Source: an uncultured virus (IMG/VR IMGVR_UViG_2795385499_000003)
Taxonomy: Duplodnaviria > Heunggongvirae > Uroviricota > Caudoviricetes
Reading direction: 5' to 3' (one strand)
IMG/VR virus record: IMGVR_UViG_2795385499_000003
Length of the DNA stretch: 64,000 nt
Notes under the pieces: model-generated
What the model saw: the letters and a program-made list of their open reading frames with translations, nothing else
The model's database searches: none
Told to the model about the DNA's origin: nothing
Shown here: in pieces, positions 9,475-60,875 of the stretch
Position numbering within the stretch: the stretch's first letter is position 1
Layout of the letters: each line of letters begins with the position of its first letter
Made by a program: the position numbers and the translations under genes

Positions 9475-9510
9475 GCGATCTCCGGGCTATAAAAAACCCG
9501 CCGGAGCGGG

Positions 9511-38885: not shown

Positions 38886-38905
38886 TGGGGGTACATTTGG
38901 GGGTA
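38886..38905 (+). repeat. Integrase arm-type site (left)
   Basis: TGGGGGTACATTTGGGGGTA, 19/20 identical to 60039-60058. Confidence 0.8.
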
Positions 38906-38938
38906 GATGCCTGTTCAATGAAAAGAGATACCCCCAAT

Positions 38939-41516: not shown

Positions 41517-41528
41517 CGGAGCCTAAAA

Positions 41529-42338: not shown

Positions 42339-42510
42339 ACCAACCAGCCAACCAGAACCCAATCAGCGTTATCAGGACGCCAGCGGCGCCATAGTGAAAG
42401 TACACAGTGTGCTATCTAATCGCGTGACGTTCTATAGGACCGGGTATGAGTCTCCATGCACATACTCAGTTGAGCGTTTCATCCGGGAGTTCACGGAGGT
42501 GGCTCAATGA
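42331..42510 (+). CDS. DUF4222 protein (59 aa; not in track)
   Basis: P.PNQRYQD..G..V.V......RVTF.R.GY..PC......F.REF. Confidence 0.7.
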   Translation: MTKPTSQPEPNQRYQDASGAIVKVHSVLSNRVTFYRTGYESPCTYSVERFIREFTEVAQ

Positions 42511-43223
42511 ATGCTGCGTCATGGTGTGGATCACAGCTGCGTGCAAAGCCGCATTTGGGCTTAGCCAAACTTAGCCAGACCTTAACCAATCTTAACGGCT
42601 ACTCAGCCATAGATTCGGCTGAAAACCTGTCAAAACCTGACATGCCGAGCCGTAAGACATGGTCTTACGTTAGTTATGCCTGCTATCACAATCCGTCAAA
42701 AAACAGCTTGCTCAGGTCACAATATTCGGACTATGCTCAACCTTCACCGGCAAAATCCGGTGACAGGATTGGCGTCCTGGTTATGTTATCGGCGACATAT
42801 GACGCGCCTAGCGTCTTTTTTTATGTCGTTAATCTAACTCACCCATTTTTCAGCGATGCGGTTATAATCCGTGCCGCTCACGAAGTAATGGTGGGCTGGA
42901 TGGGGGCGGAGAAATCCGCGCCGGTTTCCGATAACGCCGGTTACGCCAACCCTGTTCAGTCCACCACCAGTGAAATTGGCGTTTCCGGTGGTGGTATCAA
43001 ATACCAGTTATCGGAGGCTGCCATCATGGCTACTGCCCTCACCCAAGTCACACCCAATTTTGAGTTTCGTTTTCTGGCTCTGTCACGCGCTGACATGAAG
43101 GCCAAGCCTTGCCGCGTATCTGTTGAGGCCATCAGCGAGAAAGAAGCTCGCCGCGTTCTGGCCCCTCATTTCATCCTGTCATTAGCCGCACGCCTGCCAG
43201 TTCAGGAGGTGGCGCATGTTTAA
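42507..43223 (+). CDS. Ash/Eta-like ORF spanning the immunity region
   Basis: AKSG.RIG, MVGWMGA.K.APV...GYANP motifs. Confidence 0.6.
   Translation: MNAASWCGSQLRAKPHLGLAKLSQTLTNLNGYSAIDSAENLSKPDMPSRKTWSYVSYACYHNPSKNSLLRSQYSDYAQPSPAKSGDRIGVLVMLSATYDAPSVFFYVVNLTHPFFSDAVIIRAAHEVMVGWMGAEKSAPVSDNAGYANPVQSTTSEIGVSGGGIKYQLSEAAIMATALTQVTPNFEFRFLALSRADMKAKPCRVSVEAISEKEARRVLAPHFILSLAARLPVQEVAHV
42889..42966 (+). ncRNA. C4/CI-type antisense immunity RNA
   Basis: Cloverleaf TGGTGGGCTGGA...TTCAGTCCACCA; loop ACGCCAA complementary to TTGGCGT at 42769 and 42976; loop CCGATAAC complementary to GTTATCGG at 42785 and 43007. Confidence 0.85.
43026..43223 (+). CDS. icd: Icd/Kil-like host cell division inhibitor
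   Basis: GGAGG SD overlapped by antisense target; F.F.AL.R...A.SE.EARR.L......AARLP. Confidence 0.75.
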   Translation: MATALTQVTPNFEFRFLALSRADMKAKPCRVSVEAISEKEARRVLAPHFILSLAARLPVQEVAHV

Positions 43224-43425
43224 TCCCGTTTATGAAATTACCCTCAAGCAAGCCGCCGAGCGTGCTCACCAGGCAGAAATTATCTCCCGCTTAATCGAAC
43301 TCAGCTCAGACGAGATCGGGGAAGGTGATTTAACAGCAATTTCAACACTGTTGCGCCAACTTACAGGTGACGTGGCCGCGTTTCTCGTTGAAATGGTTGC
43401 TGAAGAGGAGAGCCGCAATGCGTAA
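43216..43425 (+). CDS. Satellite hypothetical protein
   Basis: Overlapping start/stop chain with GGAGG SD. Confidence 0.65.
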   Translation: MFNPVYEITLKQAAERAHQAEIISRLIELSSDEIGEGDLTAISTLLRQLTGDVAAFLVEMVAEEESRNA

Positions 43426-43591
43426 CCCGATCGAACTCATTGACGCCATGAATAAAATCGAGAGCCTGGTCATTGCTGCGCAGTTCCTCACATCAAATGA
43501 CGACGAGCGTAAAACGCAAAGCGAGCTGCTGAACATCATCGAAGATATTGCCCGAAATGCTCAAAAGAGCCTGGAGGGTGACCATGCGTAG
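43418..43591 (+). CDS. Satellite hypothetical protein
   Basis: ATG 43418, GAGGAG SD, coupled. Confidence 0.6.
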   Translation: MRNPIELIDAMNKIESLVIAAQFLTSNDDERKTQSELLNIIEDIARNAQKSLEGDHA

Positions 43592-43763
43592 TTACTTCCA
43601 GATTCAAGCGCGCGGACTCAACCGCCGTGGCGATACCGTAGCGATAAATTATCAGGTGATTACCTCCTCAAGCGCTTATGCCAAAGCCCACGCGCTGAAA
43701 AAAGCACGCCTTGATGGGCTGAAGCAACCTCACATCAGTCATGCACGGGAGGTGTTGGCATGA
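43584..43763 (+). CDS. Satellite hypothetical protein
   Basis: ATG 43584, GGAGG SD, coupled. Confidence 0.6.
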   Translation: MRSYFQIQARGLNRRGDTVAINYQVITSSSAYAKAHALKKARLDGLKQPHISHAREVLA

Positions 43764-43945
43764 AAGCACAGTTAATCGAATTAAGTGACGTTATGTGCCG
43801 CATCCAGCAAGCCCAAACAGTGCTTACTGTCTGGCTGAAAACAATGACCACAGATGATGGCCTCGTGCCCGATATGGTTGATTCCGTTCTCACGATTCTG
43901 GACGGCTTGCCTGACGCTATTGCTCAGCAGATGGAGGAAAAGTAA
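43760..43945 (+). CDS. Satellite hypothetical protein
   Basis: ATGA overlap, GGAGG SD. Confidence 0.6.
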   Translation: MKAQLIELSDVMCRIQQAQTVLTVWLKTMTTDDGLVPDMVDSVLTILDGLPDAIAQQMEEK

Positions 43946-44172
43946 TGGCTATTTCATTCGCTGAAATTGACTCACAGGCCGCCAATCTGAAGAAGGCACG
44001 CGCCGTTCTATCAATCCTGCTTGAGACGATGCCAGGCAACGACGTTAACGAGGATTACACCTGGCTCATCAATCTCGCCCACGGCACCGTTCACGACACC
44101 ATTAAGGCGCTGGAGGCAGCAGTTGATGCCGATCTTAATTCTCGTGGTAAAGGAGCGCCGGCCAAACCATGA
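43945..44172 (+). CDS. Satellite hypothetical protein
   Basis: TAATG overlap, GGAGG SD. Confidence 0.6.
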   Translation: MAISFAEIDSQAANLKKARAVLSILLETMPGNDVNEDYTWLINLAHGTVHDTIKALEAAVDADLNSRGKGAPAKP

Positions 44173-44780
44173 ATAACATTCTTAAATTCTCGAAAATGCC
44201 GGAGAAATCCGGCTCTTTCTCAGCCGAGGCCACCCCTGATGGGGTGCGCATTGGCAGCCGGCTTATAGGTTTCTCATCCATCATTCGACAATTGGATGAA
44301 GGGCGCTTCGATAAGCCGATTTCGGAGGGTTTTGGTGTGATTGCCGAGTTATCTCTTGCTGAAATCCGTGGCTGGTTTCAACCCAGCATAGAGCAGCAGG
44401 TTAACGTCTGGCGCTGGATGGTGGCAGGCGTATTTATCGTTGAGCAGATGCAAGCCAATGGCACCGTCGAAGTGGATCAGGGTGACGGCACAACGGCTTA
44501 TGCGGTGCGTTACGTGGGTGAGCATGGTGGCATCGTAGTTTATCCGGCAACCGAGCGATTCTCTCTGACGAGAAATATTGAGGAACTGGCGTTTGAGCAG
44601 TTCACCCATGACAACCCTCACCAGAAAGCCCTGATGATTTACCAATCCATGCTGGAAGCAGCCCCAGATGGCGGCATGACGTTATCCACGTGGGGCCGTG
44701 ATGCTATGACAATGCTCCACGACGGATTTATCGAAATGCTGAATACCGAAGGTATGCCAGCCGCACCGATAGCGCACTAA
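44169..44780 (+). CDS. Satellite hypothetical protein
   Basis: 203-aa ORF in coupled operon. Confidence 0.7.
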   Translation: MNNILKFSKMPEKSGSFSAEATPDGVRIGSRLIGFSSIIRQLDEGRFDKPISEGFGVIAELSLAEIRGWFQPSIEQQVNVWRWMVAGVFIVEQMQANGTVEVDQGDGTTAYAVRYVGEHGGIVVYPATERFSLTRNIEELAFEQFTHDNPHQKALMIYQSMLEAAPDGGMTLSTWGRDAMTMLHDGFIEMLNTEGMPAAPIAH

Positions 44781-44791
44781 GGGAGATAGTC

Positions 44792-45148
44792 ATGACAATT
44801 ATCACTAAAAACTTCCGACTTAATGCGCTGGCCAACCAGTATTCAGCGGCCATTTATAACCATGTCAGGCAGCTGAACGGGGGCGACTGGTTCCCGATGG
44901 AAATCAGCGGGCGGAGGATTGAGGTTGCTATTGTGGATGGTTCATCCGGTATCAGGTTGCTGGTGGACAGCTTTCTGCTGGAGGCATTGAAGCAGGAACA
45001 TCCACGCTGGGAGGCTCTGGCTGTCAATCTGTTGCCCCTCTGTATAGAGGGCGCCGAACTGAGCGAGCGAGGGGAAAATATCTGGCAAGGCATGATTAAC
45101 GACATGAGCGCCACCCTCTCGAATAAAGGGAGTAACTTCAATGCGTAA
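44792..45148 (+). CDS. Satellite hypothetical protein preceding primase
   Basis: 118-aa ORF overlapping primase start. Confidence 0.7.
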   Translation: MTIITKNFRLNALANQYSAAIYNHVRQLNGGDWFPMEISGRRIEVAIVDGSSGIRLLVDSFLLEALKQEHPRWEALAVNLLPLCIEGAELSERGENIWQGMINDMSATLSNKGSNFNA

Positions 45149-47924
45149 TTATGACCTTATCCGGGAGACGACAAGCGCAGCGGCTAACCGCTGGCCGCTG
45201 GTGCTGAGCCAGTTGGGAATTAAAGTCCCCCGCTCGCCCCGCCAGCACGCGCCCTGCCCGGCCTGCGGTGGTGTTGACCGCTTTCGCTTCGATGACAAAG
45301 GGCGTGGCAGCTTCTTCTGCAATCAATGCGGTGCGGGTGATGGCTTAGACCTGATCCAGAAAGTTAACGAGTGCGGGGTAACTGAGGCCGCACGCATGGC
45401 TGCTGATGTGCTGGGTATTGATTACCGGGCAACAGAAACTGACCAGAAAGCAGCCAGCCAGAGAAGGCAGCAGCTTGATGAGCAGCGCCACCAGCAGGAG
45501 CAGGAGCGCCAGCAGAAAGAGTCAGCTGAGGCCGCACACCGTCGCGATAATTTTGTGAGCCACTACCAGAGGCTGGCAGAGCAATCCACTCTACGTGAAA
45601 GCGAATACCTGATTGCCAAAGGGCTCGACGCCTTCACCCTGCCGTGCCTGCCCGATGGATCAATTCTGCTTTCGCTGGTGGATGAATCCGGCGATGTAGC
45701 AGCAGCTCAGACCATTACGCCTCAGGGCGAAAAAAAGGTGCTCTATGGCTCTGCAAAGCGCGGGGCGTGGCACCTCGTTAACCAGCCGCAGGACGTAAGC
45801 GAAATCATCATTGGTGAAGGTCTGGCTACGACGCTCACCGCTCACCAGATACGCCCCACAGCGCTCGCTGTCGTGGCTCTTGATGCCGGTAACCTGCTGC
45901 CCGTCGCTCAAGCTATGCGCCAGCGGTACCCGGAAGCCTCAATCATCATCGCCGGCGATAACGACTGGCATGAACCGGGTGAGCTCGACGACCACGGCAG
46001 GCCGAAAGTTAACGGGGGAAAGATATTCGCCCTAAAAGCTGCTGAAGCCGTTAATGGCTCTGTCTCATTACCCCCCACCAGCTACAAGGCTGACTGGGAT
46101 GATTACCGCCAGCAAAACGGGCTGGATAACACCACTACAGCATTTAACGAATCATTGTACCAACCGCAGGGGGAAAGCATGGGCGCTCAACTGGAAGTGA
46201 TTGAAGGCGGCAAAGCAACAGCGCCGGATCGCGACTCGCTAAAACCCCGGATTGAAAGCCGTCAGGATGGTGTGTATTGGGTTGAGCCAAACACCGATAA
46301 GCAGACCGGGGAAATCATCAACCGTGAAAGCTGGTTGTGCTCTCCTCTGCAGGTGATCGGTACCGGGCGCGATGACAAAGACCAGTACCTGATACTTCGC
46401 TGGCTGGCGTGGGGTTCAGACAGCGAAACCACACAGGCTATTCCGCTTGCTGACATTGGTGAGCGAGAAGGATGGAGAACGCTCAAAGCTGGTGGCGTGA
46501 ACGTAACAACTAAAAGCGGCCTGAGAGCAATTCTGGCGGACTGGCTACAGCGGAACGGGTCAAAGGAGGTCTGGAGAGTGGCGCACGCTACAGGGTGGCA
46601 GTGCGGCGCTTATATCATGCCTGACGGGGAGATCATCGGTGCGCCTGATAAGCCGGTACTGTTCAATGGCCGCAGTTCTGCCGCAGCCGGTTACACCAGC
46701 AGGGGAAGCGCTGAAAGCTGGCGCCAAAGCGTTGGAGCGCTGGCCGCCGGTAACTATTCAATGATGACTGGCGTTGCTGCGGCGCTGGCTGCCCCGCTGA
46801 TTGGCCTGGCGGGTGCTGATGGCTTCGGCATTCACTTCTACGAGCAATCAAGCGCCGGTAAAACCACCACCGCCAATGTGGCCAGCAGCCTCTACGGTAA
46901 TCCTGACCAGCTGCGCCTGACGTGGTACGGCACCGCGTTAGGCCTGGCTAACGAAGCTGCCGCCCATAATGATGCGCTGATGCCACTGGATGAGGTGGGG
47001 CAAGGCGCTGATCCGGTTAGCGTCTCACAGTCAGCCTATGCGCTCTTTAACGGCGTGGGGAAACTGCAGGGAGCCAAAGAAGGCGGTAACCGTGACCTGA
47101 AGCGCTGGCGCACAGTGGCGATCAGCACCGGCGAGATGGATTTAGAAACCTTCATCGCTATGGCGGGCCGTAAAGCGAAGGCCGGGCAACTGGTCAGGCT
47201 GCTGAATATCCCACTGAGTAAGGCTGTGAGATTCCACCAGCACGAGAACGGCAAGCAGCACGCCGACGCGCTGAAGGATGCCTGGCAGAATCACCACGGC
47301 GTAGCAGGCCGGGAGTGGATTAAATGGCTAGCCGGCAATCAACAGCAGGCTACTGAAACAGTCAGAGAGGCAGAGGCGCGCTGGCGCGGTCTGATACCGG
47401 CAGAATATGGCGAGCAGGTTCATCGCGTAGGCGCACGCTTCGCCATTCTTGAGGCTGCGCTACTGCTGGGCCGCGTTATCACTGGATGGGACGAGCAGAC
47501 GTGCCGCGACGCCGTTCAGCACAGCTATAACGCCTGGGTGAGAGAGTTTGGTACCGGCAACAAAGAACATCAGCAGATCATCGCCCAGTGTGAAGCGTTT
47601 TTAAACGCCAATGGCTACAGCCGGTTTGCCCCTTTCCCGTATGACCCTCAATCGCTTCCTATCCGCGATATGGCTGGCTATCGCGCCAGCGGCAACCATG
47701 ACGATGATCCGATCGTCTTTTACACCTTCCCGGCAACGTTCGAGCAGGAGATAGCCAGTGGATTCAACCCCAAGCAGTTCGCCCGGGTGCTGGCAGAGAG
47801 CGGCATGCTGACACCACCGACCAGCGGCAGAGGATTCCAGCGTAAGTCTCCGCGGATTAACAAACGTCAGTACAACGTCTATGTAATCCAGTACCGGCCA
47901 GAGGATGAGGCTCAGGAAGAGTAA
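45141..47924 (+). CDS. Primase-helicase (Zn finger + TOPRIM + DUF927/Cch-like ATPase)
   Basis: CPACGG.DRFRFDD...CNQCG.GDG; IGEG.AT, IAGDND; SSAGKTT Walker A, LDEVG Walker B. Confidence 0.93.
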   Translation: MRNYDLIRETTSAAANRWPLVLSQLGIKVPRSPRQHAPCPACGGVDRFRFDDKGRGSFFCNQCGAGDGLDLIQKVNECGVTEAARMAADVLGIDYRATETDQKAASQRRQQLDEQRHQQEQERQQKESAEAAHRRDNFVSHYQRLAEQSTLRESEYLIAKGLDAFTLPCLPDGSILLSLVDESGDVAAAQTITPQGEKKVLYGSAKRGAWHLVNQPQDVSEIIIGEGLATTLTAHQIRPTALAVVALDAGNLLPVAQAMRQRYPEASIIIAGDNDWHEPGELDDHGRPKVNGGKIFALKAAEAVNGSVSLPPTSYKADWDDYRQQNGLDNTTTAFNESLYQPQGESMGAQLEVIEGGKATAPDRDSLKPRIESRQDGVYWVEPNTDKQTGEIINRESWLCSPLQVIGTGRDDKDQYLILRWLAWGSDSETTQAIPLADIGEREGWRTLKAGGVNVTTKSGLRAILADWLQRNGSKEVWRVAHATGWQCGAYIMPDGEIIGAPDKPVLFNGRSSAAAGYTSRGSAESWRQSVGALAAGNYSMMTGVAAALAAPLIGLAGADGFGIHFYEQSSAGKTTTANVASSLYGNPDQLRLTWYGTALGLANEAAAHNDALMPLDEVGQGADPVSVSQSAYALFNGVGKLQGAKEGGNRDLKRWRTVAISTGEMDLETFIAMAGRKAKAGQLVRLLNIPLSKAVRFHQHENGKQHADALKDAWQNHHGVAGREWIKWLAGNQQQATETVREAEARWRGLIPAEYGEQVHRVGARFAILEAALLLGRVITGWDEQTCRDAVQHSYNAWVREFGTGNKEHQQIIAQCEAFLNANGYSRFAPFPYDPQSLPIRDMAGYRASGNHDDDPIVFYTFPATFEQEIASGFNPKQFARVLAESGMLTPPTSGRGFQRKSPRINKRQYNVYVIQYRPEDEAQEE

Positions 47925-47947
47925 GCCTCACATGTGAGGATTTTAGT

Positions 47948-48058
47948 GTTGGTTCAGTTAGTTCAGTTGGTTCAATTCCTCGTCACCTTTGATTTATAAG
48001 GAATTTAAATTTAAAAGTGAACCAACACTGAACCAACAAAGGGCTGTTTTGAACCAAC
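47948..48058. repeat. Iteron cluster 1 (putative satellite ori)
   Basis: 3 abutting GTT(G/A)GTTCA, 43-bp AT-rich spacer, 3 spaced TGAACCAAC. Confidence 0.8.
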
Positions 48059-48075
48059 ATCCTCAGCGGAAAAAC

Positions 48076-48471: not shown

Positions 48472-48828
48472 ATGAAAAAGGTTTTGGCAGTGGCGCTTGG
48501 GGCGTTGTTACTTTCAGGATGTACTGTGCGTGTCGCTGATATGACTGTCGCAAGCACCAAAAACTACAACTTGAACGCAGCTAAGTTTGAGAAAGGTGCT
48601 CGCGTGACCGGCGAAGATAAAGCGCCAATCGTAATTTTCCCTTTAGGTATTCCGAACGTTAAAACGGCTATGGATCACGCTATTGAGAAAGATAAGTGTG
48701 CAGTTGGCTTGAGCGATGTGGTTATCTACCAGTTAAACCACGCCTTCCTCTTCGGCACATACGGTTTCCGTGTTGAGGGTACGCAAATTATCGACAAATC
48801 ACAGATGGGATGTGAAAACCACATCTGA
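48472..48828 (+). CDS. Small lipoprotein (possible superinfection exclusion)
   Basis: Lipobox LLSGC; own terminator 48833-48857. Confidence 0.75.
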   Translation: MKKVLAVALGALLLSGCTVRVADMTVASTKNYNLNAAKFEKGARVTGEDKAPIVIFPLGIPNVKTAMDHAIEKDKCAVGLSDVVIYQLNHAFLFGTYGFRVEGTQIIDKSQMGCENHI

Positions 48829-48871
48829 TAGCAAGCCACCTTCGGGTGGCTTTTTTCTAGGGGGCAAGGAA

Positions 48872-50011
48872 ATGAAAAAGTCTATTCTGGCATGTTTTAT
48901 ATCTGTGTTCATTTTGACAGGATGTGGTCCAAAAGAGCTTTCTCCGGAAGAGAAACAAAAAGTAGAACAACTCAAGGTGGAATTATCACAAACAGAAAGT
49001 GAGATTTCATCTGCGAATGCCGCCAATCAGAACTACTCTGGCGGGCTGATCAAGACTTTAATCAGCGCCAGAGTTGAGATTCTCAAAACAAACCAGGCGC
49101 TGATTAAGCAGCGAATTGATGGTATTGAGTCAGGCGCAAAAATAACAATGGATGTACCCGGAACAAAGCCGGATGAGGTGGCGGCTGAGTCAGTTAAGAG
49201 CGAAATAGATGCGTTAAATGCTCAGATTTCTCAGGCTAAAGCAGAAGCCAACCAATATAGCGGTGGCCTGGTTCTTGCGATGAAACTGGCAGCAATCGCA
49301 ACTCAGGAGCAAACCATGGCGATGCTTCAACAACGATATTTGTCAGCCAAGTATGGACTTGCTAACGCTATGCCATCTGATTTGAAGCAGAGCAACGTTG
49401 CTGAAGCAAAGCAAATCGAGAAGCCAGCCCAGGCTAGCAATAGCCAGCCATTGCTTCCGCCGGGAGATGGGCCATTTGGCCTGGAGTCAGGTTTAAGCAA
49501 AAAGAATATCGAAGATATGACCGGTGAAGAGCTTAAGCCTTATGAGGGCGTGCCGAATCTCTACACGATAAAATCGCCACCGAAAAAGAACGCTGAATTT
49601 GAGGGTTTTGGTCTACTCATTTCTCCAAAATCTGGCCTATGCCAAATTAGAGCGTTAGGTAAAAACATTGATACAGACAGCTATGGACTTGCGCTCCAAT
49701 CAAAATTCAAAGAGCTCTTAGATTCTCTATCTTCAATCTATGGCAAACCTAAAAGTACCGATTTTTTACTTTCAGGCTCAATCTGGAAAGAACCTCAAGA
49801 CTGGATGATGGCGCTGAACAAAAAGGAACGTTTCCTCTCAGCCCAATGGGGAGGATCTCCCGCAACACCTCTTAAAAACAAGCTTGCATCAGTATCTATG
49901 GAAGCAAGAGCCAATGGCTCTAGCGAGGGATATGTTTTCCTTCAGTATGACTTTGACAACATAGATGCTTGCAACGCAGAAATTGAAGAAGCTAAGAAAA
50001 GCTCGTTATAA
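48872..50011 (+). CDS. Lipoprotein with duplicated coiled-coil (YSGGL) N-domain
   Basis: ATG 48872 with AAGGA SD, lipobox ILTGC; GPFGL C-domain; terminator ~50061-50083. Confidence 0.78.
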   Translation: MKKSILACFISVFILTGCGPKELSPEEKQKVEQLKVELSQTESEISSANAANQNYSGGLIKTLISARVEILKTNQALIKQRIDGIESGAKITMDVPGTKPDEVAAESVKSEIDALNAQISQAKAEANQYSGGLVLAMKLAAIATQEQTMAMLQQRYLSAKYGLANAMPSDLKQSNVAEAKQIEKPAQASNSQPLLPPGDGPFGLESGLSKKNIEDMTGEELKPYEGVPNLYTIKSPPKKNAEFEGFGLLISPKSGLCQIRALGKNIDTDSYGLALQSKFKELLDSLSSIYGKPKSTDFLLSGSIWKEPQDWMMALNKKERFLSAQWGGSPATPLKNKLASVSMEARANGSSEGYVFLQYDFDNIDACNAEIEEAKKSSL

Positions 50012-50198
50012 ACCTTTCCTCTATATTGCTATATAAACGCTTATAAAATTTTGTAACCACACCTCGCTCCGGCGAGGTTTTTTATGAGCAAAATATTCGA
50101 TCAAAACGATCCAATCATCATTTCATAAATCGGCATATAAATAGAGATCGTTTCACTTTTTGCAATTATAATCACTGTATATTTATCAGGAGGTGGTT

Positions 50199-50372
50199 AT
50201 GCAAAAGTGCACAGTAAAAACAGTCCTCATTAAAGTCGAACAGTATGAAGAACTCCGTAAATTACAGGAAAAAGAGCGAGCAAAATCCCCTCTAGGTGTT
50301 GCCCCAACAATTCACGTTATCGCTCGCGGCCTGATGGATAAGGCATTGGCTCAACTTGCTCAGGAGGCGTAA
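50199..50372 (+). CDS. Small RHH-like protein heading late operon (57 aa; not in track)
   Basis: AGGAGG SD; LR.LQE.ER.KSPLG.APTIH.IARGL.DKAL; TAATG overlap with next gene. Confidence 0.7.
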   Translation: MQKCTVKTVLIKVEQYEELRKLQEKERAKSPLGVAPTIHVIARGLMDKALAQLAQEA

Positions 50373-50698
50373 TGGAACAATTACAACGCCTGGCCGAAGC
50401 TGTTGCGGACGCTTACCTTCGTAATCGGCTCCGAGAGCATGGGAATACTCAGTTTTCGCATGACGGAAAAACAGGTGAAATTCGCCGTGATTTACTGGCG
50501 TCCGGGCTGGTGGATAACTGCGTTTATGCTGCCCGAAATAGCGGCAAGGCCGATTATGAACAGGAGGCATACTCAATGCTAATGGAGATGATTTCTCTGG
50601 ACGGCAGAGAGTACCGGGTAACAGACCACGGCCTGAACGTAATCGAACATATGCATCGCATAGCGCTGGTTAAAGCCACGCCCCGCGTCAATCATTAA
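50372..50698 (+). CDS. Hypothetical protein
   Basis: 108-aa coupled ORF. Confidence 0.7.
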   Translation: MEQLQRLAEAVADAYLRNRLREHGNTQFSHDGKTGEIRRDLLASGLVDNCVYAARNSGKADYEQEAYSMLMEMISLDGREYRVTDHGLNVIEHMHRIALVKATPRVNH

Positions 50699-50707
50699 GG
50701 GGGATGA

Positions 50708-53281
50708 ATGGCTGATACCAAATTAGGGGGCGTCTATTACGAAGTTGATATTGATCTGGAGAAGGCCCTTGAAGCAAATCAGCAACTCAAGCGAGAGCTG
50801 AAGGCACTAAGTGACAATGCCAAGAACTCCGCAGGTGGAATCAAAACGCTTGAGACACAGGCCAAAACCACTGCCACAGCGGTCAACCAAGCCACTAAAG
50901 CAGGAGGCGCTTTCCGCAGCCAGTTCCAGCAAGCCGGTTATCAGATTCAGGATTTCATCGTACAGGTTCAGGGCGGACAATCTGCACTGGTCGCTTTCAG
51001 TCAGCAAGGTTCTCAATTGGCGGGAGCATTTGGCCCAGGTGGTGCCATTGTGGGCGCGGTGATTGCTTTGGGTACAGTAATCGCAGGCACGTTAATTACC
51101 GCTTTAAACGGCGGTAAAAACGCAATGGATGCTCTCCGAGAAGCAGCAGACGCAATGGATAAGGTGATCACCATTTCACAAAATGGGGTAGCCGCGCTGT
51201 CAGATAAGTATGCAAATCTTGCCAGGGTAAACGCAGAAGTTGCCACGCTGATGAGAAATCAGGTGCTGCTGGAATACAACCAGGCAATGACGAAGGTTTC
51301 AAAGACTATATCTGATACCACCAGCGAGTTTTTCTCCTTTGGCGATACAGCTAAAGCCGCACTGTCTGGCGGCACAGTCAGTGTTAAGTTGCTTAGCACT
51401 ATCCTTGACGCCGCTGAAGTCAAAACCAATAACTTCACCGATGCGTTCAATGAGATAAGCAAAAGCAGCATTGCGAACGAAGCGACTATCTCAACATTTA
51501 CAAACACCGTTGGGGCATTATCTTCCCGGCTGGGTATTACTGATCAAGCTGCTTTTGAACTGGCAAAACAGCTGAATGACCTAAGTAAAAACCCTTCTCC
51601 ACAGGCATTAACTACCTTAGCTATTCGCCTGCAAAATATGACCTCATCTAGCAAGGAGGGACAGGAACAAATCACCAGTCTGTCTAAGACGTTAGTAGGA
51701 TTAGCTGTAGAAGCTACCAACGCTAAATTAAACATGGATAGCCTCAAGCGCACCACTGACAACCTAACTGACGGGCAGAAAAACCTGTTAAAGCAGGCAG
51801 AACGAAACCTCTCGCTGTCAAAACTTCAGGGAGAAGCTCGCGCCCGACTCGCAGCCCAATATGCTGCTGAAGATGCAGGATTTGCTAAAGACGACCCTCA
51901 CGCCAAAAAGACGGAAGATGATGCGGCCGCCACTTATAAAAATTTAGAAGCGACGAAGCAGCTTAACTCTGAGCAGAAGAAATCAGCCGGCCAGGCATCC
52001 CGTAATGCTCAGGTACTGGAACAGTATCGGCAAAAGGCCGAGCTTTCTGCTGATTCGGTTGATGGACTATCCCGTGCTCAGGCAGTTCTTCAGGCACGTC
52101 AGAAACTGGTAAACCCTACACCAGCTCAAATAGCGCAGGTAGAGAAGGATGCTGGCGCAGCGTGGGATAAAGCCGCCGCAATACGCGCTCAGGCAGCGGC
52201 TATGAAGCTAATCCCGGAGCAGGCAGAGAACACTCGATACAAACAAGATGTTGCCGATCTCAAAACCGCCCTGGAACAAAAGACCATCACACAGAAGCAG
52301 CACGACACGGCTGCCGAGCAGATGGAGCAACAGCACCAGGTAAATTTAGCCCGAATAAGGGCCACGCAGAACGTCGGAGTTACCCCACTGCAGGAAGCAC
52401 AAGGCGCTATCGATCCTGTTCAGGCAATGGCTAATGAGAACGCCAAAAAGCTCGCATTAATACAGGAGTTCGAAACCGCTAAGGGGCAAATCACCCTCAA
52501 TGGTCTGGCATTGATGAATGCTGCTAACACGCAGTATGAGCAACAGCGCATCGCTGCTCAGTGGGAGATATACCGCAACCAGAGCGCCGCTAACAGCCTG
52601 CTGGCTGACGCGGTTGATTCTCTTCAAGGTGGCGCGACAAATGCCATTACCGGCCTTCTGAATGGCACTCAGAGCCTTAGTGAAGCATTCGCCAACATCG
52701 GAAGCACGATCCTCAACAGCGTTGTGAGTGGGCTGGTGGAGATGGGCCTACAGTATGTGAAAAACATGGTTATGGGGCAGGTGGCGGCATCAGCGGCACT
52801 TGGAGCAACAGCAACTCAGGCTACTGCCGCTGCGGGCATGTGGGGACCAGCAGCTGTGAGCGCCTCTATCGCCACTATGGGTACAGCCTCAACTGTTGGC
52901 ACAACGGCCTACTCAACCGCATTGATGGCTTCCAAAGGGCTGGCAGTAGCTGGAGCCCGTGAGCATGGCGGGCCTGTTCTGGCTAACTCAATGTACCGGG
53001 TAGGTGAAGGCGGTAAGCCCGAAATCTTCAAGGCGTCTAACGGCAGCCAGTACATGATCCCGGGTGATAACGGCTCTGTTATCAGCAATAAGGATATTGG
53101 CAACGCTAATGGTAGTGGTGGTGTGAGCCTGGAAGTCAATTTCAACATCACTACCACTAACGGTATTGATGAAGCCACACAGAAGCAAATGGCCCAGCAA
53201 ATGGAAATAGTTGCCCTGAAAGTCGCGCGGGAGCAAAGCACGCGTGATGGGGGCTTTCTTCAAAAGCGGATTAGGAAGTAA
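50708..53281 (+). CDS. Tail tape measure protein (lambdoid/siphoviral type) in satellite
   Basis: 857 aa Ala/Gln-rich helical; GYQIQD..VQ..GGQ......QQGSQL motif, TM stretch, C-terminal ARE.GGPV...YRVGE.G.PE. Confidence 0.88.
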   Translation: MADTKLGGVYYEVDIDLEKALEANQQLKRELKALSDNAKNSAGGIKTLETQAKTTATAVNQATKAGGAFRSQFQQAGYQIQDFIVQVQGGQSALVAFSQQGSQLAGAFGPGGAIVGAVIALGTVIAGTLITALNGGKNAMDALREAADAMDKVITISQNGVAALSDKYANLARVNAEVATLMRNQVLLEYNQAMTKVSKTISDTTSEFFSFGDTAKAALSGGTVSVKLLSTILDAAEVKTNNFTDAFNEISKSSIANEATISTFTNTVGALSSRLGITDQAAFELAKQLNDLSKNPSPQALTTLAIRLQNMTSSSKEGQEQITSLSKTLVGLAVEATNAKLNMDSLKRTTDNLTDGQKNLLKQAERNLSLSKLQGEARARLAAQYAAEDAGFAKDDPHAKKTEDDAAATYKNLEATKQLNSEQKKSAGQASRNAQVLEQYRQKAELSADSVDGLSRAQAVLQARQKLVNPTPAQIAQVEKDAGAAWDKAAAIRAQAAAMKLIPEQAENTRYKQDVADLKTALEQKTITQKQHDTAAEQMEQQHQVNLARIRATQNVGVTPLQEAQGAIDPVQAMANENAKKLALIQEFETAKGQITLNGLALMNAANTQYEQQRIAAQWEIYRNQSAANSLLADAVDSLQGGATNAITGLLNGTQSLSEAFANIGSTILNSVVSGLVEMGLQYVKNMVMGQVAASAALGATATQATAAAGMWGPAAVSASIATMGTASTVGTTAYSTALMASKGLAVAGAREHGGPVLANSMYRVGEGGKPEIFKASNGSQYMIPGDNGSVISNKDIGNANGSGGVSLEVNFNITTTNGIDEATQKQMAQQMEIVALKVAREQSTRDGGFLQKRIRK

Positions 53282-53362
53282 TTGAACGGTCGCAGGGACG
53301 CGATCATGTTGAGTTTGGTCAAGGTGAAACGGGTATGAGAAATAGCGAAAGGTGGCAGACAG

Positions 53363-53797
53363 ATGCCTGACAGCACGAAAGAACAGGCCAGCCGTGATAA
53401 AGGCGGCAAATGGAAGAAAGGCGCATCGGGTAATCCCGGTGGGCGCAGCAGCAAAGCAGCTGAACTGAGGCGTGTGCTGGAAGGTGGCGCTGATGATGCT
53501 GTGAAAACCATCATGGACGCGGCTAAAGAAGGCGATATGGCTGCTTGTCGCCTCATCCTGGACAGAGTTGTCCCGCCGAGTAAGCCGGTTTATCAGCCTG
53601 TTTCGTTTGAGCTGGACGACAGCGATTTACCTGCAGCAGCCCGTTCGGTAATTAAGGCGATAGCCGCGGGAGAACTGCCGGCCGACCAAGGGAAAATGAT
53701 TCTGGATGGCCTGGCGAACATGGCGAAGATTATCGAAATTACAGAACTGGCTGAGCGTGTAGCTGAGCTGGAGAAAGCACAGGAGAGCGGACAATGA
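53363..53797 (+). CDS. DUF5681 / terminase small subunit-like protein
   Basis: RD..GKWKKG.SGNPGGR N-terminus; A..GD..A..L.LDR..P. Confidence 0.7.
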   Translation: MPDSTKEQASRDKGGKWKKGASGNPGGRSSKAAELRRVLEGGADDAVKTIMDAAKEGDMAACRLILDRVVPPSKPVYQPVSFELDDSDLPAAARSVIKAIAAGELPADQGKMILDGLANMAKIIEITELAERVAELEKAQESGQ

Positions 53798-54012
53798 GCC
53801 TGTTAAGACGAATTGAAGCACTGGAAGCCACCAGCAGCGCCCAGACCAACAGCGGCGGCCCTGATGAAATATGGTTAATCGGTGTTAGCCCTGACGGTTC
53901 ACGCGAGTGTAGGGGCGGCTGGGTCAAGGATGAAGGGCTTTTCCGCAACGCCACAGCTGAAGAAGCACAGCGACATAATCAGCTTATCCTGCAGTGGGAT
54001 CATCATGGGTAG
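53794..54012 (+). CDS. Small protein with N-terminal RhxxhE coiled-coil
   Basis: MSLLRRIEALE; ATGA overlap. Confidence 0.65.
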   Translation: MSLLRRIEALEATSSAQTNSGGPDEIWLIGVSPDGSRECRGGWVKDEGLFRNATAEEAQRHNQLILQWDHHG

Positions 54013-54223
54013 CCTGCTGGCGCGACTGAACCGGCTGGAAAAGACCATGACGCCCAAGGATGGCGATACACAGGTGATTTCAGCCCTGATGGATGAGTTA
54101 GCAGGCAATGCCCCTGCAGGAGTGTATGAGAGGGCCATAGAGCGCCTGTCACTGCGCGGGCATAACTTCCCGCAGTCACCAGAACTGAGAGTGTTGCTAA
54201 TGGGCGGTAACGATGAACATTAA
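54005..54223 (+). CDS. Small protein with N-terminal RhxxhE coiled-coil
   Basis: MGSLLARLNRLEK; ATG 54005. Confidence 0.6.
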   Translation: MGSLLARLNRLEKTMTPKDGDTQVISALMDELAGNAPAGVYERAIERLSLRGHNFPQSPELRVLLMGGNDEH

Positions 54224-54437
54224 AGCTCGCCTGGCTGCGCTGGAGAAGGTAGCTAGAGATAAAGGCAGCAAATCCATTGACGGGCCACAGCCACCCGTCA
54301 GAGCGGACTATGTGCGCGAGGATGGCACCTTTGATCATGTTGGTTACAGAGCGGCGACTGACCAATGGAGCATCGAGGTATTTGGCAAGCCGTTGGCGCT
54401 GGTGGCCGAAGAGATCGCAGAAGCTGAGGATTTCTAA
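54213..54437 (+). CDS. Small protein with N-terminal RhxxhE coiled-coil
   Basis: MNIKARLAALEK. Confidence 0.62.
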   Translation: MNIKARLAALEKVARDKGSKSIDGPQPPVRADYVREDGTFDHVGYRAATDQWSIEVFGKPLALVAEEIAEAEDF

Positions 54438-54442
54438 CTGAC

Positions 54443-55117
54443 ATGACACCATTGAAAGAGATTGGCGAATGCCTGGTAATTGACGGCGATGATGAATACT
54501 TTTTCCGTCCGTCCCTGATAGCCATGTCGAGTATTGGTGAGCCCGGCGAGATTGTTTCAACGTTCCATGCGCTACACAGCAACGAGGCAACGACATTACT
54601 GCGCCGAGCCTATGATGCTTATGGAGCCATTCCCCACTGGGTGACCGAGTACGCTAAGCGGCCTGAGTTCACCAAGCCAGCAATATATGCCGCTATGGAT
54701 GTGTTAACCGCCTGCTGTAATCGTGACGCTTCACCGCTGGTGGGTGTGCTGGTGCCGAGCAAAACCAAAAAGCGAACCTTCCTGCATCGTCGCGGAAAGA
54801 TGCCAGCCACAGACATGATTATCTTTGCGCAGTCCCTGATGATACACGGCATTATCGGCAAGGCTAAAGTGCGCCGGCTTCAGCGCCATGAGGACGGGCA
54901 GACCACCAGCGAATTCAACGCATTCGAGTACATCAGCGCCGCTCGTAATCACTTTGGTATGAGCAGAGATGAAGCGGAACAGCTTACCATGACCGAGTTC
55001 ACCATGCTGCTGGCGGCCAAGTATCCTGATCAGAAGGGCTTTACGCGGGAAGAGTACGAGCAGGTAGCTGATGATTATTTCGAGCGAAAGGCACGGAAGC
55101 TGGCCAAGGCTGCGTAA
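54443..55117 (+). CDS. DUF6246-like phage tail-region protein (putative tail assembly chaperone)
   Basis: TPLKEIGEC, YFFRPS..AM..IG.P.EIV, AARNHFG....EA..LTMTEF...L.AKYP motifs. Confidence 0.7.
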   Translation: MTPLKEIGECLVIDGDDEYFFRPSLIAMSSIGEPGEIVSTFHALHSNEATTLLRRAYDAYGAIPHWVTEYAKRPEFTKPAIYAAMDVLTACCNRDASPLVGVLVPSKTKKRTFLHRRGKMPATDMIIFAQSLMIHGIIGKAKVRRLQRHEDGQTTSEFNAFEYISAARNHFGMSRDEAEQLTMTEFTMLLAAKYPDQKGFTREEYEQVADDYFERKARKLAKAA

Positions 55118-55216
55118 GAAGTCAGTTGCTCTCGGGATGCCATGAAAAATACAAACGCAACAAGATGACCACTCCACCCAAAAGGTAGCGCCATCGGTGT
55201 TGATGGCGCATATATA

Positions 55217-55876: not shown

Positions 55877-56920
55877 ATGCTATCGGAAAAGGCAGTTATT
55901 ACTTTTTATAATATCAATAAAGCTGGTTATTACGCACAAGGTAGTAAGCAACCAGCTTTTGGCGGTGTGTTGGAGACGCTGAGTGATTTGCAACGCTGGG
56001 CGAAGCCTAAAAAGTTAAAGCAGACAAAAACTTACGAGGCTAATGAAGAACGATATCCTTGCTATCTTGTGGATGCGAAAAAGAACGGTGATGACTGGGC
56101 TCTTCTGATGTGGAATGAAATTCCTTCTAATGGTCAACAGGTGCCTTCAATAAGTGAAACAGCTCAATTCGGAGCTGATCCTGAAGTTATTCTGAACCCT
56201 TTACAGCAGGGCAGCATTCCCGGCTACGCCACTTATTTCTGGTTGCTTCCAGACAAGAACCTTTTGGCAACGGTACGACTTCATAACAAACTAACTTCGC
56301 AGGCTTCCCTGCAGTATTACCTTCAGTGTTTTCTTAAACAGTCCTCTCAGCATGTTGTGTCTAAACCCTTCACGAATGAAGACGGAAGCGTTGAAGTCCA
56401 GATAACAGGATACAAAAGCGACCCTTCAGATCCTGATGAAGAGAAAAAGCACTACAACCCCAGATTTAGTTCCAGCTTGGTTAGGAATGGAGGAAAGCAT
56501 GAGGTCATACGACAGAATGCCGAGAAAATTAAGAAAATTGAGAGGGTTGTTGAGCTTGACTTAGCTAAACCAGAGCAGCTTGGCTTATGGCAAAAAATGC
56601 TTCAGGTTGTCCATTTAGATGCCCCTCAAGGTGCAGGGATCAGTACTAAAGTCAGATATACAGTAGCACCAGACATCACGCTCAAAGATGTCAACGCAAT
56701 GATTGACGACTGGGAAGCTGACCCAAGCGAGGTTAACGATTACGGCTTCTATTTCGAAGGTGAAACCAATAAGCCATACTGGTTAAGTAAATCGCTTGCC
56801 CGTATGGATTTTGAGCTAGAGCTTGAGCGAGAAAACGTAGAATTTGTACAGCTGGAATCTCTGCTGAACGATTTAGTGAAGAAGAAAAATACTATCTTAA
56901 AAGGTGCCGGATTGTTATGA
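55877..56920 (+). CDS. Soluble hypothetical protein (candidate defence component)
   Basis: 347 aa, AT-rich, ATGA-coupled to membrane protein. Confidence 0.8.
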   Translation: MLSEKAVITFYNINKAGYYAQGSKQPAFGGVLETLSDLQRWAKPKKLKQTKTYEANEERYPCYLVDAKKNGDDWALLMWNEIPSNGQQVPSISETAQFGADPEVILNPLQQGSIPGYATYFWLLPDKNLLATVRLHNKLTSQASLQYYLQCFLKQSSQHVVSKPFTNEDGSVEVQITGYKSDPSDPDEEKKHYNPRFSSSLVRNGGKHEVIRQNAEKIKKIERVVELDLAKPEQLGLWQKMLQVVHLDAPQGAGISTKVRYTVAPDITLKDVNAMIDDWEADPSEVNDYGFYFEGETNKPYWLSKSLARMDFELELERENVEFVQLESLLNDLVKKKNTILKGAGLL

Positions 56921-57423
56921 ATTTAAAAGCGGTCATAGGATTAACATGTATAGCAATTGTGCTTCTTGCGGGATACCTAGGAAGAAACGTTGCCTTTGTA
57001 CTCCAATGGCCGCTATTTGAAGCACTTAGGACGACAGCATCAATTATTTTTGCTGTGGTAGGCGCTTGGTTTGCAATCATCTACCCTGAAAGGTTAAAAA
57101 AATCTTTTCGGGGAGGTACAGCTGAAAATAGTGGACCAGGCATACATAGACTATTCACTCCGATTGTTCACTCAACTGCGATCCTAGCCACAGTTCTAGT
57201 TACAGGCGTTGTGGCACCTTTGCTCAAACAATTTGATTGGGTATTGTCGCACCGAGAAATATTCCGAGGGCTATCCTATGGACTGCTGGTTTTTTTGACT
57301 TTATGGCAGCTTTTAACGGTTTTGTTTAGCTTAATCGGTCCAGACATGGTTAAACGTCATGTCTCGAAACAAGATCGGGCAGATGAGGCTGCAAATTCCG
57401 TATTGCCGGCCAAGAAGGAATAA
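56917..57423 (+). CDS. Four-TM membrane protein (candidate defence effector)
   Basis: Four hydrophobic segments; coupled to 347-aa gene. Confidence 0.8.
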   Translation: MNLKAVIGLTCIAIVLLAGYLGRNVAFVLQWPLFEALRTTASIIFAVVGAWFAIIYPERLKKSFRGGTAENSGPGIHRLFTPIVHSTAILATVLVTGVVAPLLKQFDWVLSHREIFRGLSYGLLVFLTLWQLLTVLFSLIGPDMVKRHVSKQDRADEAANSVLPAKKE

Positions 57424-57472
57424 AAATTATTGGTTCGTAATTTTGAGGCAAAACCTGCTTTTTTTCTTCCAA

Positions 57473-57622
57473 GCGCTATAAATATCCTTATCCTATGCCT
57501 TACCTGTCTTAGTCTGTAAACCAGCCTCATTAAGCCGTTCAGCGATGATGCGATCATTGTCAAAGCCTTGTGCGATTGTCTCTTTCACCACACTGATCAC
57601 CGCCTGTTCATCGTATGGCAAA
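57473..57622 (-). pseudogene. Remnant paralog of 59217-59651 gene
   Basis: Ungapped diverged direct repeat of 59275-59424; Trp codon changed to TAG. Confidence 0.75.
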
Positions 57623-59216: not shown

Positions 59217-59651
59217 CTAATTTCTGAGCATGGCCGCATCGACTTTAGCTTTATGGTCTGCCTGACGTTTCCATGCGCTATATATATCTTTAGTCCACGC
59301 CTTACCAGCTTTCGTCTGATAGCCTGCATCGTTAAGTCGTTCTGCGATGATGCGACCATTGTCAAAGCCCTGATTGATAGTCTCTGCAATGATGCGGATC
59401 ACCTCCTGTTCATCGTATGGCAAACCCGGCACACCCTGCTTACCGATGATAAGAGCAGCCGCGGCCACTTCCATACGTTCCACCAGCGACATTAAGCGAG
59501 CGTTAGGATTAGTCTCTGGCAGGCTCATCTTCTGCCGAATAGCATCGACCAGCCATGCTGTTTTATCACCACCAGCAGCGCTAACAGCATCAGTAAAAGC
59601 TTCGCTTAGTTCGGCTGGTACACGGAAAGTAACGGAAAGGGATTTGCTCAT
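59217..59651 (-). CDS. DNA-binding protein (RHH-like N-terminus, recombinase-like HTH C-terminus)
   Basis: VTFRVP.EL; IAERLN..GY.TK.GK.W; next to iteron cluster 2. Confidence 0.7.
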   Translation of the reverse strand: MSKSLSVTFRVPAELSEAFTDAVSAAGGDKTAWLVDAIRQKMSLPETNPNARLMSLVERMEVAAAALIIGKQGVPGLPYDEQEVIRIIAETINQGFDNGRIIAERLNDAGYQTKAGKAWTKDIYSAWKRQADHKAKVDAAMLRN

Positions 59652-59718
59652 AGGTCACCAGCATCAGGGGAGAAGTGAGCATTTTAGCATCGTAAGACAG
59701 TGTAAGACATGAAAAATT

Positions 59719-59838
59719 GTTGGTTCATACTGTCCCGTTGTTGGTTCAATTGGGGGCTGTGTTGGTTCACTTTTTCCAAAATAAACCTTACAAAACAAGA
59801 ATCTTTACAAATTGAACCAACTGAACCAACTGAACTAC
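59719..59838. repeat. Iteron cluster 2 (mirror image of cluster 1)
   Basis: GTTGGTTCA at 59719, 59740, 59761; 43-bp spacer; abutting TGAACCAAC x2 plus TGAACTAC. Confidence 0.8.
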
Positions 59839-60058: not shown

Positions 60059-60114
60059 TGTGGAATTATATAATGCATAAAAAACATTATATAACATATA
60101 CATATGTTTTATTA

Positions 60115-60134
60115 TTCAATCCTGCAGGGCGCCA
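60115..60134 (+). other. Degenerate attR (tRNA 3'-end copy)
   Basis: TTCAATCCTGCAGGGCGCCA versus tRNA TTCGATTCCTGCAGGGGACACCA. Confidence 0.65.
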
Positions 60135-60313
60135 TATGTTAGCCCACCTAAGTATTTTAAAGTCCAGTCAACTCTTCAACTTCAAATACTTACCTTCCTT
60201 TTGTAGCCCGTTAACGTACACCGTCATATTTCAAAACCCACGCTGTTTTGTTGGTACCTGTGTTGGTATTTTAAGTTCGAAAATGCAGATACCATCAGAA
60301 GATGGGTTTTAGT

Positions 60314-60875
60314 ATGGCGCTCACTGAGTTAACAATAAGAAATACAAAGCCTTCTGATAAACCTGTCAAATTGACAGACGGTAATGGTATGCATCATTCC
60401 CGGAAAGCGACAACCTATGAAGGGGGTAAAATATTCTGCAAGAGGGGCAAAGATGAAAACCCCACATCTGGCTCCACTAAGCACTCAAGCTAAAGCGCTC
60501 CTGGAAGAGCTTCACTCGATCAGTAGTGATAAAGAACTTATGTTCAATAGTTTTACCAGGGACGACAAACTTGTCAGTGCAAACACCCTCAACAAAGCAC
60601 TCAGGACGATGGGCTACGATACGAAAGCAGAAGCCTGCGGGCATGGTGTCAGGACTATAGCGTGTGCCTTAATCGAATCGGGGTTATGGTCGAGAGATGC
60701 TGTGGAAAGACAAATCAGCCACCAGGAACGCAACAGTGTCCGAGCTGCATACATACATCAAGCGGAGCATTTGGAAGAACGGAGACTTATGTTGCAATGG
60801 TGGGCTGACTACCTCGAAGCATGTAAAAAAGGGGCACTAACACCTTTCTCCTTTTCAAAAGGTTCAGGATTTTGA
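60314..60875 (+). pseudogene. Internally deleted P4-like integrase of an older island
   Basis: MALTELTIRNTKP..KP.KLTDG.GM joined out of frame to HGVR...ERQISH..R..VRAAY; arm-like TGTTGGTA repeats at 60249-60269. Confidence 0.88.

Follow-up and report, generated by a model that had tools for sequence, protein, structure and literature searches.

Several phage satellites encode tail proteins of their own. In Vibrio cholerae, the phage-inducible chromosomal island-like element (PLE) PLE11 is reported to encode a tape measure protein (TMP), a tail assembly chaperone (TAC) and a baseplate hub and to form chimeric tails; its own TMP was found in those tails by western blot, mass spectrometry and electron microscopy, and an 80-amino-acid (aa) product, Rta, blocks the TMP of phage ICP1 (PMC12987554). 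The legend of Extended Data Fig. 10 in that report marks putative tmp genes in PLE-like elements and in some phage-inducible chromosomal islands of the kind that forms capsids (cf-PICIs). Mycolicibacterium EPIPs are reported to encode a small terminase subunit (TerS) and a TMP and to alter tail length relative to the helper (PMC12822802), the Escherichia coli SUSP1 'F5' satellites have no structural genes other than those for a TMP and a baseplate protein (bioRxiv 10.64898/2026.10.15.759431), and Tai proteins, which inhibit tail assembly, are known from PICIs and P4-like satellites (PMC11364771). Within the parts of this literature cited here, TMP substitution by a satellite was shown experimentally for Vibrio PLE11 only (2025-2026). 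An earlier note on the DNA studied here had placed satellite TMPs mainly in Vibrio PLEs, a view now overtaken by the published EPIP, SUSP1 and cf-PICI examples. We examined that DNA, a 64,000-nucleotide stretch of an uncultured virus record (IMG/VR IMGVR_UViG_2795385499_000003; hereafter the window), and in it a satellite-type island whose late operon (50199-55117) carries a full-length TMP gene.

We favour, with modest confidence, a reading of this operon as the virion-hijacking module of a helper-dependent P4/PICI-type satellite, one that would redirect packaging and swap the island's own TMP into helper tails. Satellites with their own TMP are already known; what is new here is a siphophage-type TMP on a P4/PICI backbone with a family-specific 108-aa partner. 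No description of this island family was found in the literature searched, main texts largely from outside the subscription journals.

The likeness to PLEs is one of mechanism only. Like them, the island is a satellite without tube or tip genes that has its own TMP and a chaperone, with a TMP that would be diverged from the helper's and a chimeric-tail model. As the report cited above portrays them, PLEs parasitise the myophage ICP1 and have a baseplate hub gene as well, with the 80-aa Rta added in PLE11, whereas the island has a siphophage-type TMP, an int/alpA/primase backbone, an unrelated 108-aa partner and a TerS-like gene 3' of the TMP. The EPIPs share TerS and TMP with the island and differ in their serine integrase, their capsid, scaffold and connector genes and their actinobacterial host. 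The SUSP1 satellites are described as elements that are also enterobacterial, with tail genes including TMP as the only structural genes, but that carry a baseplate protein and use phage SUSP1 as helper. Some cf-PICIs resemble the island in the putative tmp genes of the legend mentioned above, whereas the island is without their own capsid genes: no major capsid, portal, protease or connector gene was matched among its 28 open reading frames (ORFs) of at least 40 aa, scanned at E<=0.01 in Pfam and E<=0.001 in PHROGs.

The backbone resembles that of AlpA-type PICIs such as EcCICFT073 and of Staphylococcus aureus pathogenicity island (SaPI)-type elements with their own TerS, being small, without head genes and with int, alpA and primase-replicase genes in that order (38885-47924) between att sites. 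As in TerS-bearing PICIs, packaging could be redirected by an island-encoded small-terminase-type protein. Classical PICIs have no tail structural gene, and absence of phage structural genes is one of their criteria; the island, unlike them, encodes a TMP and a DUF6246 protein and at ~21 kb is above most of them in size, AlpA-type PICIs being about 10-20 kb. The set that typifies P4, an integrase, an AlpA-type regulator and an alpha-type primase-helicase, was also found in the island by Pfam and PHROGs, and P4-like satellites share with it the tRNA-site tyrosine integrase, the large primase-helicase and hotspots for defence cargo. We take its two iteron clusters to recall P4 ori and crr. Helpers of P4 are P2-like myophages, and P4 is not known to carry a TerS-like gene or a TMP. 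Unlike P4, the island had no match to the Delta/Ogr, Sid or Psu families of capsid-size and late control among its 28 ORFs.

The late operon and its proteins

The operon is tightly packed on the plus strand, and the ORF listing placed each gene where the earlier note had drawn it. It begins with a 57-aa protein (50199-50372; ORF start at 50193 or 50199, the ATG at 50199 being preceded by AGGAGGTG) and a 108-aa protein (50372-50698; phrog_19131) whose gene overlaps the 57-aa stop. These are followed by the TMP (857 aa; 50708-53281), a small-terminase-like DUF5681 protein (144 aa; 53363-53797), three small ORFs with no family match (72 aa, 53794-54012; 113 aa or shorter, 53882-54223; 74 aa, 54213-54437), two of which overlap in different frames, and a DUF6246 protein (224 aa; 54443-55117). 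A bidirectional terminator-like hairpin (55188-55209) marks the operon end. In agreement with the earlier note, Pfam and PHROGs assigned none of the 28 island ORFs to a capsid, portal, large terminase (TerL), tube, Sid, Psu or Delta family; small unassigned ORFs remain. NCBIfam gave no match for 17 island proteins and PADLOC none for any operon protein. The only head-related match, a weak one to a 'head protease' (phrog_530, E 5.8e-4), fell on a 413-aa ORF and was set aside as an artefact of its coiled coil; the ORF encodes a lipoprotein that related islands L005-L008 lack.

The TMP is intact. It matched phrog_1538 over residues 4-842 (E 2.4e-165) and phrog_1107 (E 3.7e-149), and no Pfam family was found for it. 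Matches were obtained in 446 phage records, the best of them, at 54-57% identity, in siphophages of Klebsiella, Hafnia and Enterobacter, and alignment with the TMPs of two prophages was end to end at 61-63% identity (residues 5-853 with an 866-aa ORF in L009, 5-854 with an 868-aa ORF in L010). Of the aligned columns 37 were invariant, all except one in the C-terminal half. Phages with related TMPs carry lambda-like tail tips (M, L, K, I, J). The flanks of the island TMP differ from such a tail module, with no tube or M/L/K/I/J genes and with the TerS-like gene and small ORFs on the 3' side. The nearest relatives lie in siphophages with lambda-like tails and the TMP of the adjacent myophage in phrog_28, and the siphoviral type claimed for the island TMP was confirmed.

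The C-terminal domain of the TMP (residues 460-857) was present in 43 of 400 other genomes. Its best 30 loci comprised seven islands (the window's own included), 22 prophages with M/L/K homologues 3' of the TMP, one of these calls being weak, and one prophage recognised by its full context. In a maximum-likelihood tree of the domain (37 rows; the short rows L052 and L060 were left out), island TMPs fell into several groups interleaved with prophage TMPs. The island label needed five changes on this tree, at least two of them forced by well-supported branches. The window TMP grouped with those of L008, L036, L005 and L037, and N-terminal halves were swapped between islands. Repeated exchange with prophage TMPs, as read from the tree, is the distinctive feature of the satellite family. 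In one genome (G096), a lambda-like siphoprophage resides alongside the island, and over 1077 aa its TMP (1066 aa) shared 59% identity with that of the island (1086 aa); the two elements are a possible satellite-helper pair.

The 108-aa protein, encoded directly 5' of the TMP, is its constant partner. Among 50,697 phage records its gene was found in one only, Klebsiella phage ST101-KPC2phi6.1, where it also lies 5' of the TMP. In this phage (L001, MK448231.1, 4466-8891) the homologue is 37% identical and ends an insertion of ~4.5 kb between the DUF6246 gene and the TMP, which may reflect satellite-phage traffic. Phage ORFs directly 5' of the TMP in L009 and L010 were considered as further homologues and rejected (hhalign probability 0.2); they are lipoprotein-like. 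An AlphaFold2 model of the 108-aa protein from 14 sequences was alpha/beta with a pLDDT of 89.6. Foldseek found nothing for it in the PDB at E<=0.001, and when VIA-align compared it with 48,161 chains the top Z, 5.6, did not rise above noise; winged-helix-like rows (MCM, ORC, Stl N-terminus) recurred at Z of about 5. An Atlas search with the protein returned unnamed clusters only.

Pfam supported both domain calls made previously for the 3' part of the operon, DUF5681 with E 9.4e-7 (29.8 bits; cut-off 27.5) and DUF6246 with E 3.3e-77. Homologues of DUF6246 lay directly 3' of the tube gene and before the TMP in seven of seven phages (L001, L002, L009, L010, L065, L066 and L107), and the protein is a probable TAC, accessory in the family. 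Its closest homologue was in Erwinia phage Midgardsormr38 (66.5%). An Atlas lead from DUF6246 to Phage_TAC_6 was weak (score 0.85), and profile searches of the PDB with DUF5681 and DUF6246 returned nothing relevant. Relatives of the TMP, DUF6246 and DUF5681 all occur in one phage group, that of Salmonella phage seszw (genus Skatevirus).

Related phages often have a moron slot between the DUF6246 gene and the TMP. Lipoprotein or signal-peptide genes occupied this slot in L009 (8544-9932), L010 (8574-9932) and Midgardsormr38 (L107, 10441-13807), the last also with an Arc/antirepressor (immI-like) block, and three ORFs were seen in the slot of L065 (9548-11533).

The three small ORFs each have an N-terminal RLxALE-type helix motif and are kept in L005, L006 and L008. 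Similar to this RLxALE(K)-type motif is the C terminus of the TerS-like protein (…ELAERVAELEKAQ), itself kept in the homologue of Escherichia phage Bas79 (…ELAARLERLEKLL; L067, 670-1113). The small ORFs might mimic the partner-contacting part of TerS; the motif is short and amphipathic, and the likeness could be due to chance.

Upstream, a terminator hairpin (50061-50078) is followed by a conserved control region (50061-50198 with the hairpin, plus strand) containing two copies each of the direct repeats CGATC(A/C)AAA and ATC(A/G)TTTCA and the Shine-Dalgarno sequence AGGAGG. The 140 bp 5' of the operon are kept across related islands. A perfect -10 element (TATAAT, 50167-50172) without a -35 suggests that the operon promoter probably depends on an activator.

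Together, the 108-aa and TMP genes may form a cassette that is separable. The TerS-like gene of island L032 comes immediately after a 57-aa-like gene (1798-2449), apart from the TMP. Four sequencing runs were compared in detail, all as contigs, and one metagenome contig joined 50201 to 53330, bypassing the 108-aa gene and the TMP (weak, with a 36-nt side). Such single-contig joints (50201 to 53330 and 47327 to 52163) were judged too weak as a basis for conclusions.

Distribution and selection of the cassette

A scan of genome contigs with the TMP yielded six loci, of which two were full prophages and four were syntenic islands in Pantoea sp. KPR_PJ, Lonsdalea britannica, Pantoea sp. 1.19 and an Erwinia metagenome-assembled genome. 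Synteny in these four ran from alpA through the primase to the 57-aa, 108-aa and TMP genes and the TerS-like gene. When 400 genomes of the same GTDB family were sampled, 10 had a homologue of the 108-aa protein, and 10 of 10 were in int/alpA/primase islands; nine were followed by a TMP-family ORF of 903-1245 aa and one (L027) by a 210-aa piece. The two sets together gave 14 related island loci (4 from genome contigs, 10 from the genome sample), with one species in both. IMG/VR held 39 loci with a 108-aa homologue. The next ORF was at least 857 aa with TMP homology in 38 and the 39th ended at a contig edge, and a primase was seen in 33. These loci describe a conserved int/alpA/primase satellite family in Erwinia, Pantoea, Lonsdalea and other enteric genera, with >50 loci, and the order 57aa-108aa-TMP is its core. 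The primase-helicase was 47-93% identical across related islands where full-length alignment exists, and the TMP was of phage-like length (857-1245 aa) in 13 of 15 islands (the window and its 14 relatives).

By tblastn, the 57-aa protein was 49-97% identical in 12 of the 14 related islands and was matched in 31 of the 39 IMG/VR loci. It had been labelled 'RHH-like' (ribbon-helix-helix), a label that was not confirmed: no family match was found for it in Pfam, PHROGs, NCBIfam or PADLOC.

Cassette 31-mers were detected in 20 sequencing runs from 18 studies. At least half of the words were present in 14 runs, four of which were flagged as possible sources, and one run was identical to the window over the 20 kb compared. 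Megablast of the window cassette and the L091 cassette against complete E. coli genomes gave no match, a search in which only near-identical DNA is detectable.

Selection was assessed by the Nei-Gojobori method as the ratio of nonsynonymous to synonymous substitution rates (dN/dS), leaving out three comparisons (the TMPs of L009 and L010, the TerS of L006) in which internal stops revealed wrong coordinates. For the TMP, dN/dS against L005 was 0.16 (dS 0.66); the values of the 108-aa, TerS-like and primase genes were 0.18, 0.04 and 0.07, respectively. The ratio for DUF6246 against L008 was 0.065, that for the 57-aa protein was 0.02-0.11 (0.02 against L005), and the TMP cassette ranged over 0.16-0.22 at dS 0.66-2.1. 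The earlier note had asked whether the cassette might be unique to this genome and decaying. It is present in many genomes and under purifying selection (TMP dN/dS 0.16), and is therefore neither.

The TerS-like protein was 97-98% identical to those of related islands, and its dS (0.20-0.33) was below that of primase and TMP against the same islands (0.62-0.66). A cis-acting packaging site within the gene, or recent exchange, would fit such a low value.

The genes 3' of the TMP were more variable. Comparative evidence gives good support to the earlier picture of a satellite with a tail-directed late operon. DUF6246, for its part, is not conserved across the family: among the window and the 14 islands it was full-length only in the window and L008, fragments were found in L005 and L025, and none of the 39 IMG/VR loci had it. 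Elsewhere the place 3' of the TMP was taken by other TerS-labelled families, phrog_1206 in L026 and phrog_13702 in L028 and L071, and by a 122-123-aa 'tail completion/Neck1' protein (phrog_5) in L029, L031, L091 and L101.

Possible roles of the satellite tape measure protein

In the model that we favour, a helper siphophage with a lambda-like tail tip would infect or be induced, and the island would excise and replicate. The operon would be turned on from its conserved -10-only promoter, probably via an activator. The DUF5681 TerS-like protein would then steer the helper large terminase to island DNA, which would be packed in helper capsids. The full-length island TMP, made alongside the 108-aa protein and, in this island, the DUF6246 chaperone, would stand in for the helper's TMP in tails whose tube and tip proteins come from the helper. 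Use of the TMP in a chimeric tail, as a poison, or as both could be imagined.

Several observations weigh against this model. The island's own genome (99.9% complete) contained no other member of the TMP, DUF6246 or DUF5681 families, and no helper was identified in it. The DUF5681 protein is called small-terminase-like from gene position: homologues, distant at 29-40% identity, lay directly 5' of TerL in three of three phages examined (Salmonella phage seszw, Vibrio phage 1.276.O and Escherichia phage Bas79). Its AlphaFold2 model was too poor (pLDDT 60, pTM 0.32) for the Foldseek outcome, nothing at E<=0.001, to carry meaning. The DUF5681 gene is also patchy, being found in the window, in six of the 14 relatives (L005, L006, L008, L024, L030 and L032) and in one of the 39 IMG/VR loci, and packaging may therefore differ between members of the family. 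The TMP is broken in two relatives, split into 584 and 315 aa in L006 and cut to 210 aa in L027. For the 108-aa protein several roles are conceivable, among them TMP-specific chaperone, selector, inhibitor of the helper TMP and regulator. A full-length TMP, finally, would fit a tail-poisoning role too.

Poisoning is the core of the alternative that survives best, which we consider unlikely. Here the island TMP would be mainly a weapon, a competitor in helper tail assembly that leads to defective or tailless helper particles and protects the host population, and it would not be needed for the island's own transfer; the Tai, Tab and Rta tail-targeting defences would be its analogues. PICIs and P4-like satellites are reported to interfere commonly with tail assembly (PMC11364771), the island has further defence cargo (the PDC-M18 pair), and no resident helper was seen in its own genome. 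However, a short fragment would suffice for such a weapon, yet the TMP measured 857-1245 aa in 13 of 15 islands, was full-length in 38 of 39 IMG/VR loci and was under purifying selection. A chaperone and a TerS-like gene share its operon, which points to particle building. The weapon of PLE11, moreover, is described as a separate 80-aa protein and not the TMP (PMC12987554).

The neighbour of the island offers a second alternative. A contractile-tailed prophage occupies window positions 1-38547, with sheath, baseplate, a 611-aa TMP (phrog_28), TerS (phrog_83), TerL and an integrase. It is improbable, in our estimate, that this prophage is the helper and that the island TMP replaces its 611-aa TMP despite their low similarity, in the manner of PLE11 and ICP1. 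Both elements do lie in one tRNA gene, and the PLE11 TMP is also reported to be just ~20% identical to that of its helper (PMC12987554). The relatives of the island TMP, DUF6246 and DUF5681, on the other hand, are all in siphophages with lambda-like M/L/K/I/J tips, the TMP and TerS of the myophage belong to other families (phrog_28 and phrog_83), and related islands occur in genomes and sites without this myophage. These results side with the prior suggestion that the helper is probably another phage.

Very improbable, lastly, is a passenger cassette, a piece of some siphophage's tail module acquired by recombination and without a role in the island: DUF6246 is patchy with remnants in L005 and L025, the TMP is broken in two relatives and island TMPs recombine with those of phages, but the 57aa-108aa-TMP order, its promoter region and its position recur in >50 loci of many genera, dN/dS is 0.16-0.22 at dS 0.66-2.1, and the 108-aa gene, found in one of 50,697 phage records only, therefore marks the unit as no plain phage fragment.

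If the operon does place its own TMP in helper virions, entry into new hosts might be the benefit, an extension that we offer as speculative. The TMP would be the tail part that decides DNA passage through the envelope and is the target of helper exclusion and tail defences, and carriers of a helper prophage would be the best hosts for the island. A diverged TMP could let island particles enter such lysogens by evading superinfection exclusion or tail-targeting defences, with the 108-aa protein as a specificity factor that loads the island TMP or, like Rta, blocks that of the helper. Lipoprotein and signal-peptide genes in the moron slot 5' of phage TMPs would accordingly fit TMP-linked exclusion genes. 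The island family offers a tractable enterobacterial model for the choice between satellite and helper TMP, for the part of the TMP in DNA entry and exclusion and for the job of the 108-aa partner. TMP genes that stand as 'orphans' in small islands ought not to be dismissed as prophage debris during annotation.

Island borders, cargo and neighbouring elements

The island lies at a tRNA-Arg(CCT) gene (38698-38772, plus strand; ARAGORN), the 3' end of which is the attL core, and is bounded on the right by a degenerate attR, TTCAATCCTGCAGGGCGCCA, a copy of the tRNA 3' end (60113-60134, plus strand). Three contigs of one phyllosphere metagenome run provide the island-free junction, fusing the intact tRNA 3' end to position 60132 onward. 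From attL, attR and this junction, the island is therefore ~21.4 kb in size.

This tRNA gene is shared by the satellite and a phage, one on each side. The prophage, of ~39 kb, sits in the 5' half of the gene and covers window positions 1-38721 and 285 bases 5' of the window. Copies of a 24-nt repeat of the tRNA 5' end lie on either side of it, and the upstream copy retains the original tRNA promoter region.

Plus-strand genes make up the left part of the island. A tyrosine integrase (38885-40153; Pfam Phage_integrase 7.7e-29, with Arm-DNA-bind_3 and Phage_int_M) is followed by an AlpA-type excisionase/regulator (40894-41097; Phage_AlpA 1.6e-20) and an early region encoding AntA antirepressor-like, DUF4222 and Ash-family proteins (41529-43223; Pfam, PHROGs). 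Several small ORFs precede the gene for a 927-aa primase-helicase with Zn ribbon, Toprim and DUF927 domains (45141-47924; Pfam; phrog_1139, 4.3e-178). The earlier note had described a tRNA-integrated int/alpA/icd/primase element; ARAGORN and Pfam upheld the tRNA, integrase, AlpA and primase, and the icd assignment was left without a family match.

A repeat search identified two iteron clusters. Cluster A (47947-48059), just 3' of the primase gene, contains three direct and three inverted copies of the 10-mer TGTTGGTTCA and has inverted homology to 59717-59835. Cluster B (59717-59830), near the right end, contains TGTTGGTTCA three times at 21-nt spacing together with inverted copies. Adjoining cluster B on the minus strand is the gene of a 144-aa protein (59217-59651), a possible regulator; it was 54-85% identical in eight of the 14 related islands and was matched in 26 of the 39 IMG/VR loci. 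A second partial copy of the 3' part of this gene sits in the cargo region (57467-57622), where a 156-nt direct repeat has 78% identity to 59269-59424.

There are two variable cargo slots, one 5' and one 3' of the operon. In the window the 5' slot (48472-50011, plus strand) carries two lipoprotein genes, recognised by the lipobox in their translations (118 aa, and 379 aa from 48872). This region is absent from L005-L008, and other islands have different ORFs there. Cargo on the 3' side includes the PDC-M18 A and B genes (55877-57423, plus strand), a candidate anti-phage defence pair (PADLOC 2.6e-139 and 2.7e-72). Island L028 carries a PDC-M18 pair in the opposite slot, 5' of the operon (8952-10510), at 58% and 69% identity.

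Directly past attR lies a second, truncated integrase N-terminus (60302-60493, then 60384-60875), and TGTTGGTA-type repeats are found at 60250-60270. Together (60240-60875) they look like the remnant of a tandem second island. A further DUF5681-like gene with small ORFs was seen in MT836812.1 (L034, 1-8660), an unverified virome scaffold of 8.66 kb. Further genes on this scaffold are tube-like (phrog_8985, weak) and tail-completion-like (phrog_5), and one encodes an 825-aa protein whose TMP matches are weak; the scaffold may be another kind of small element bearing tail genes.

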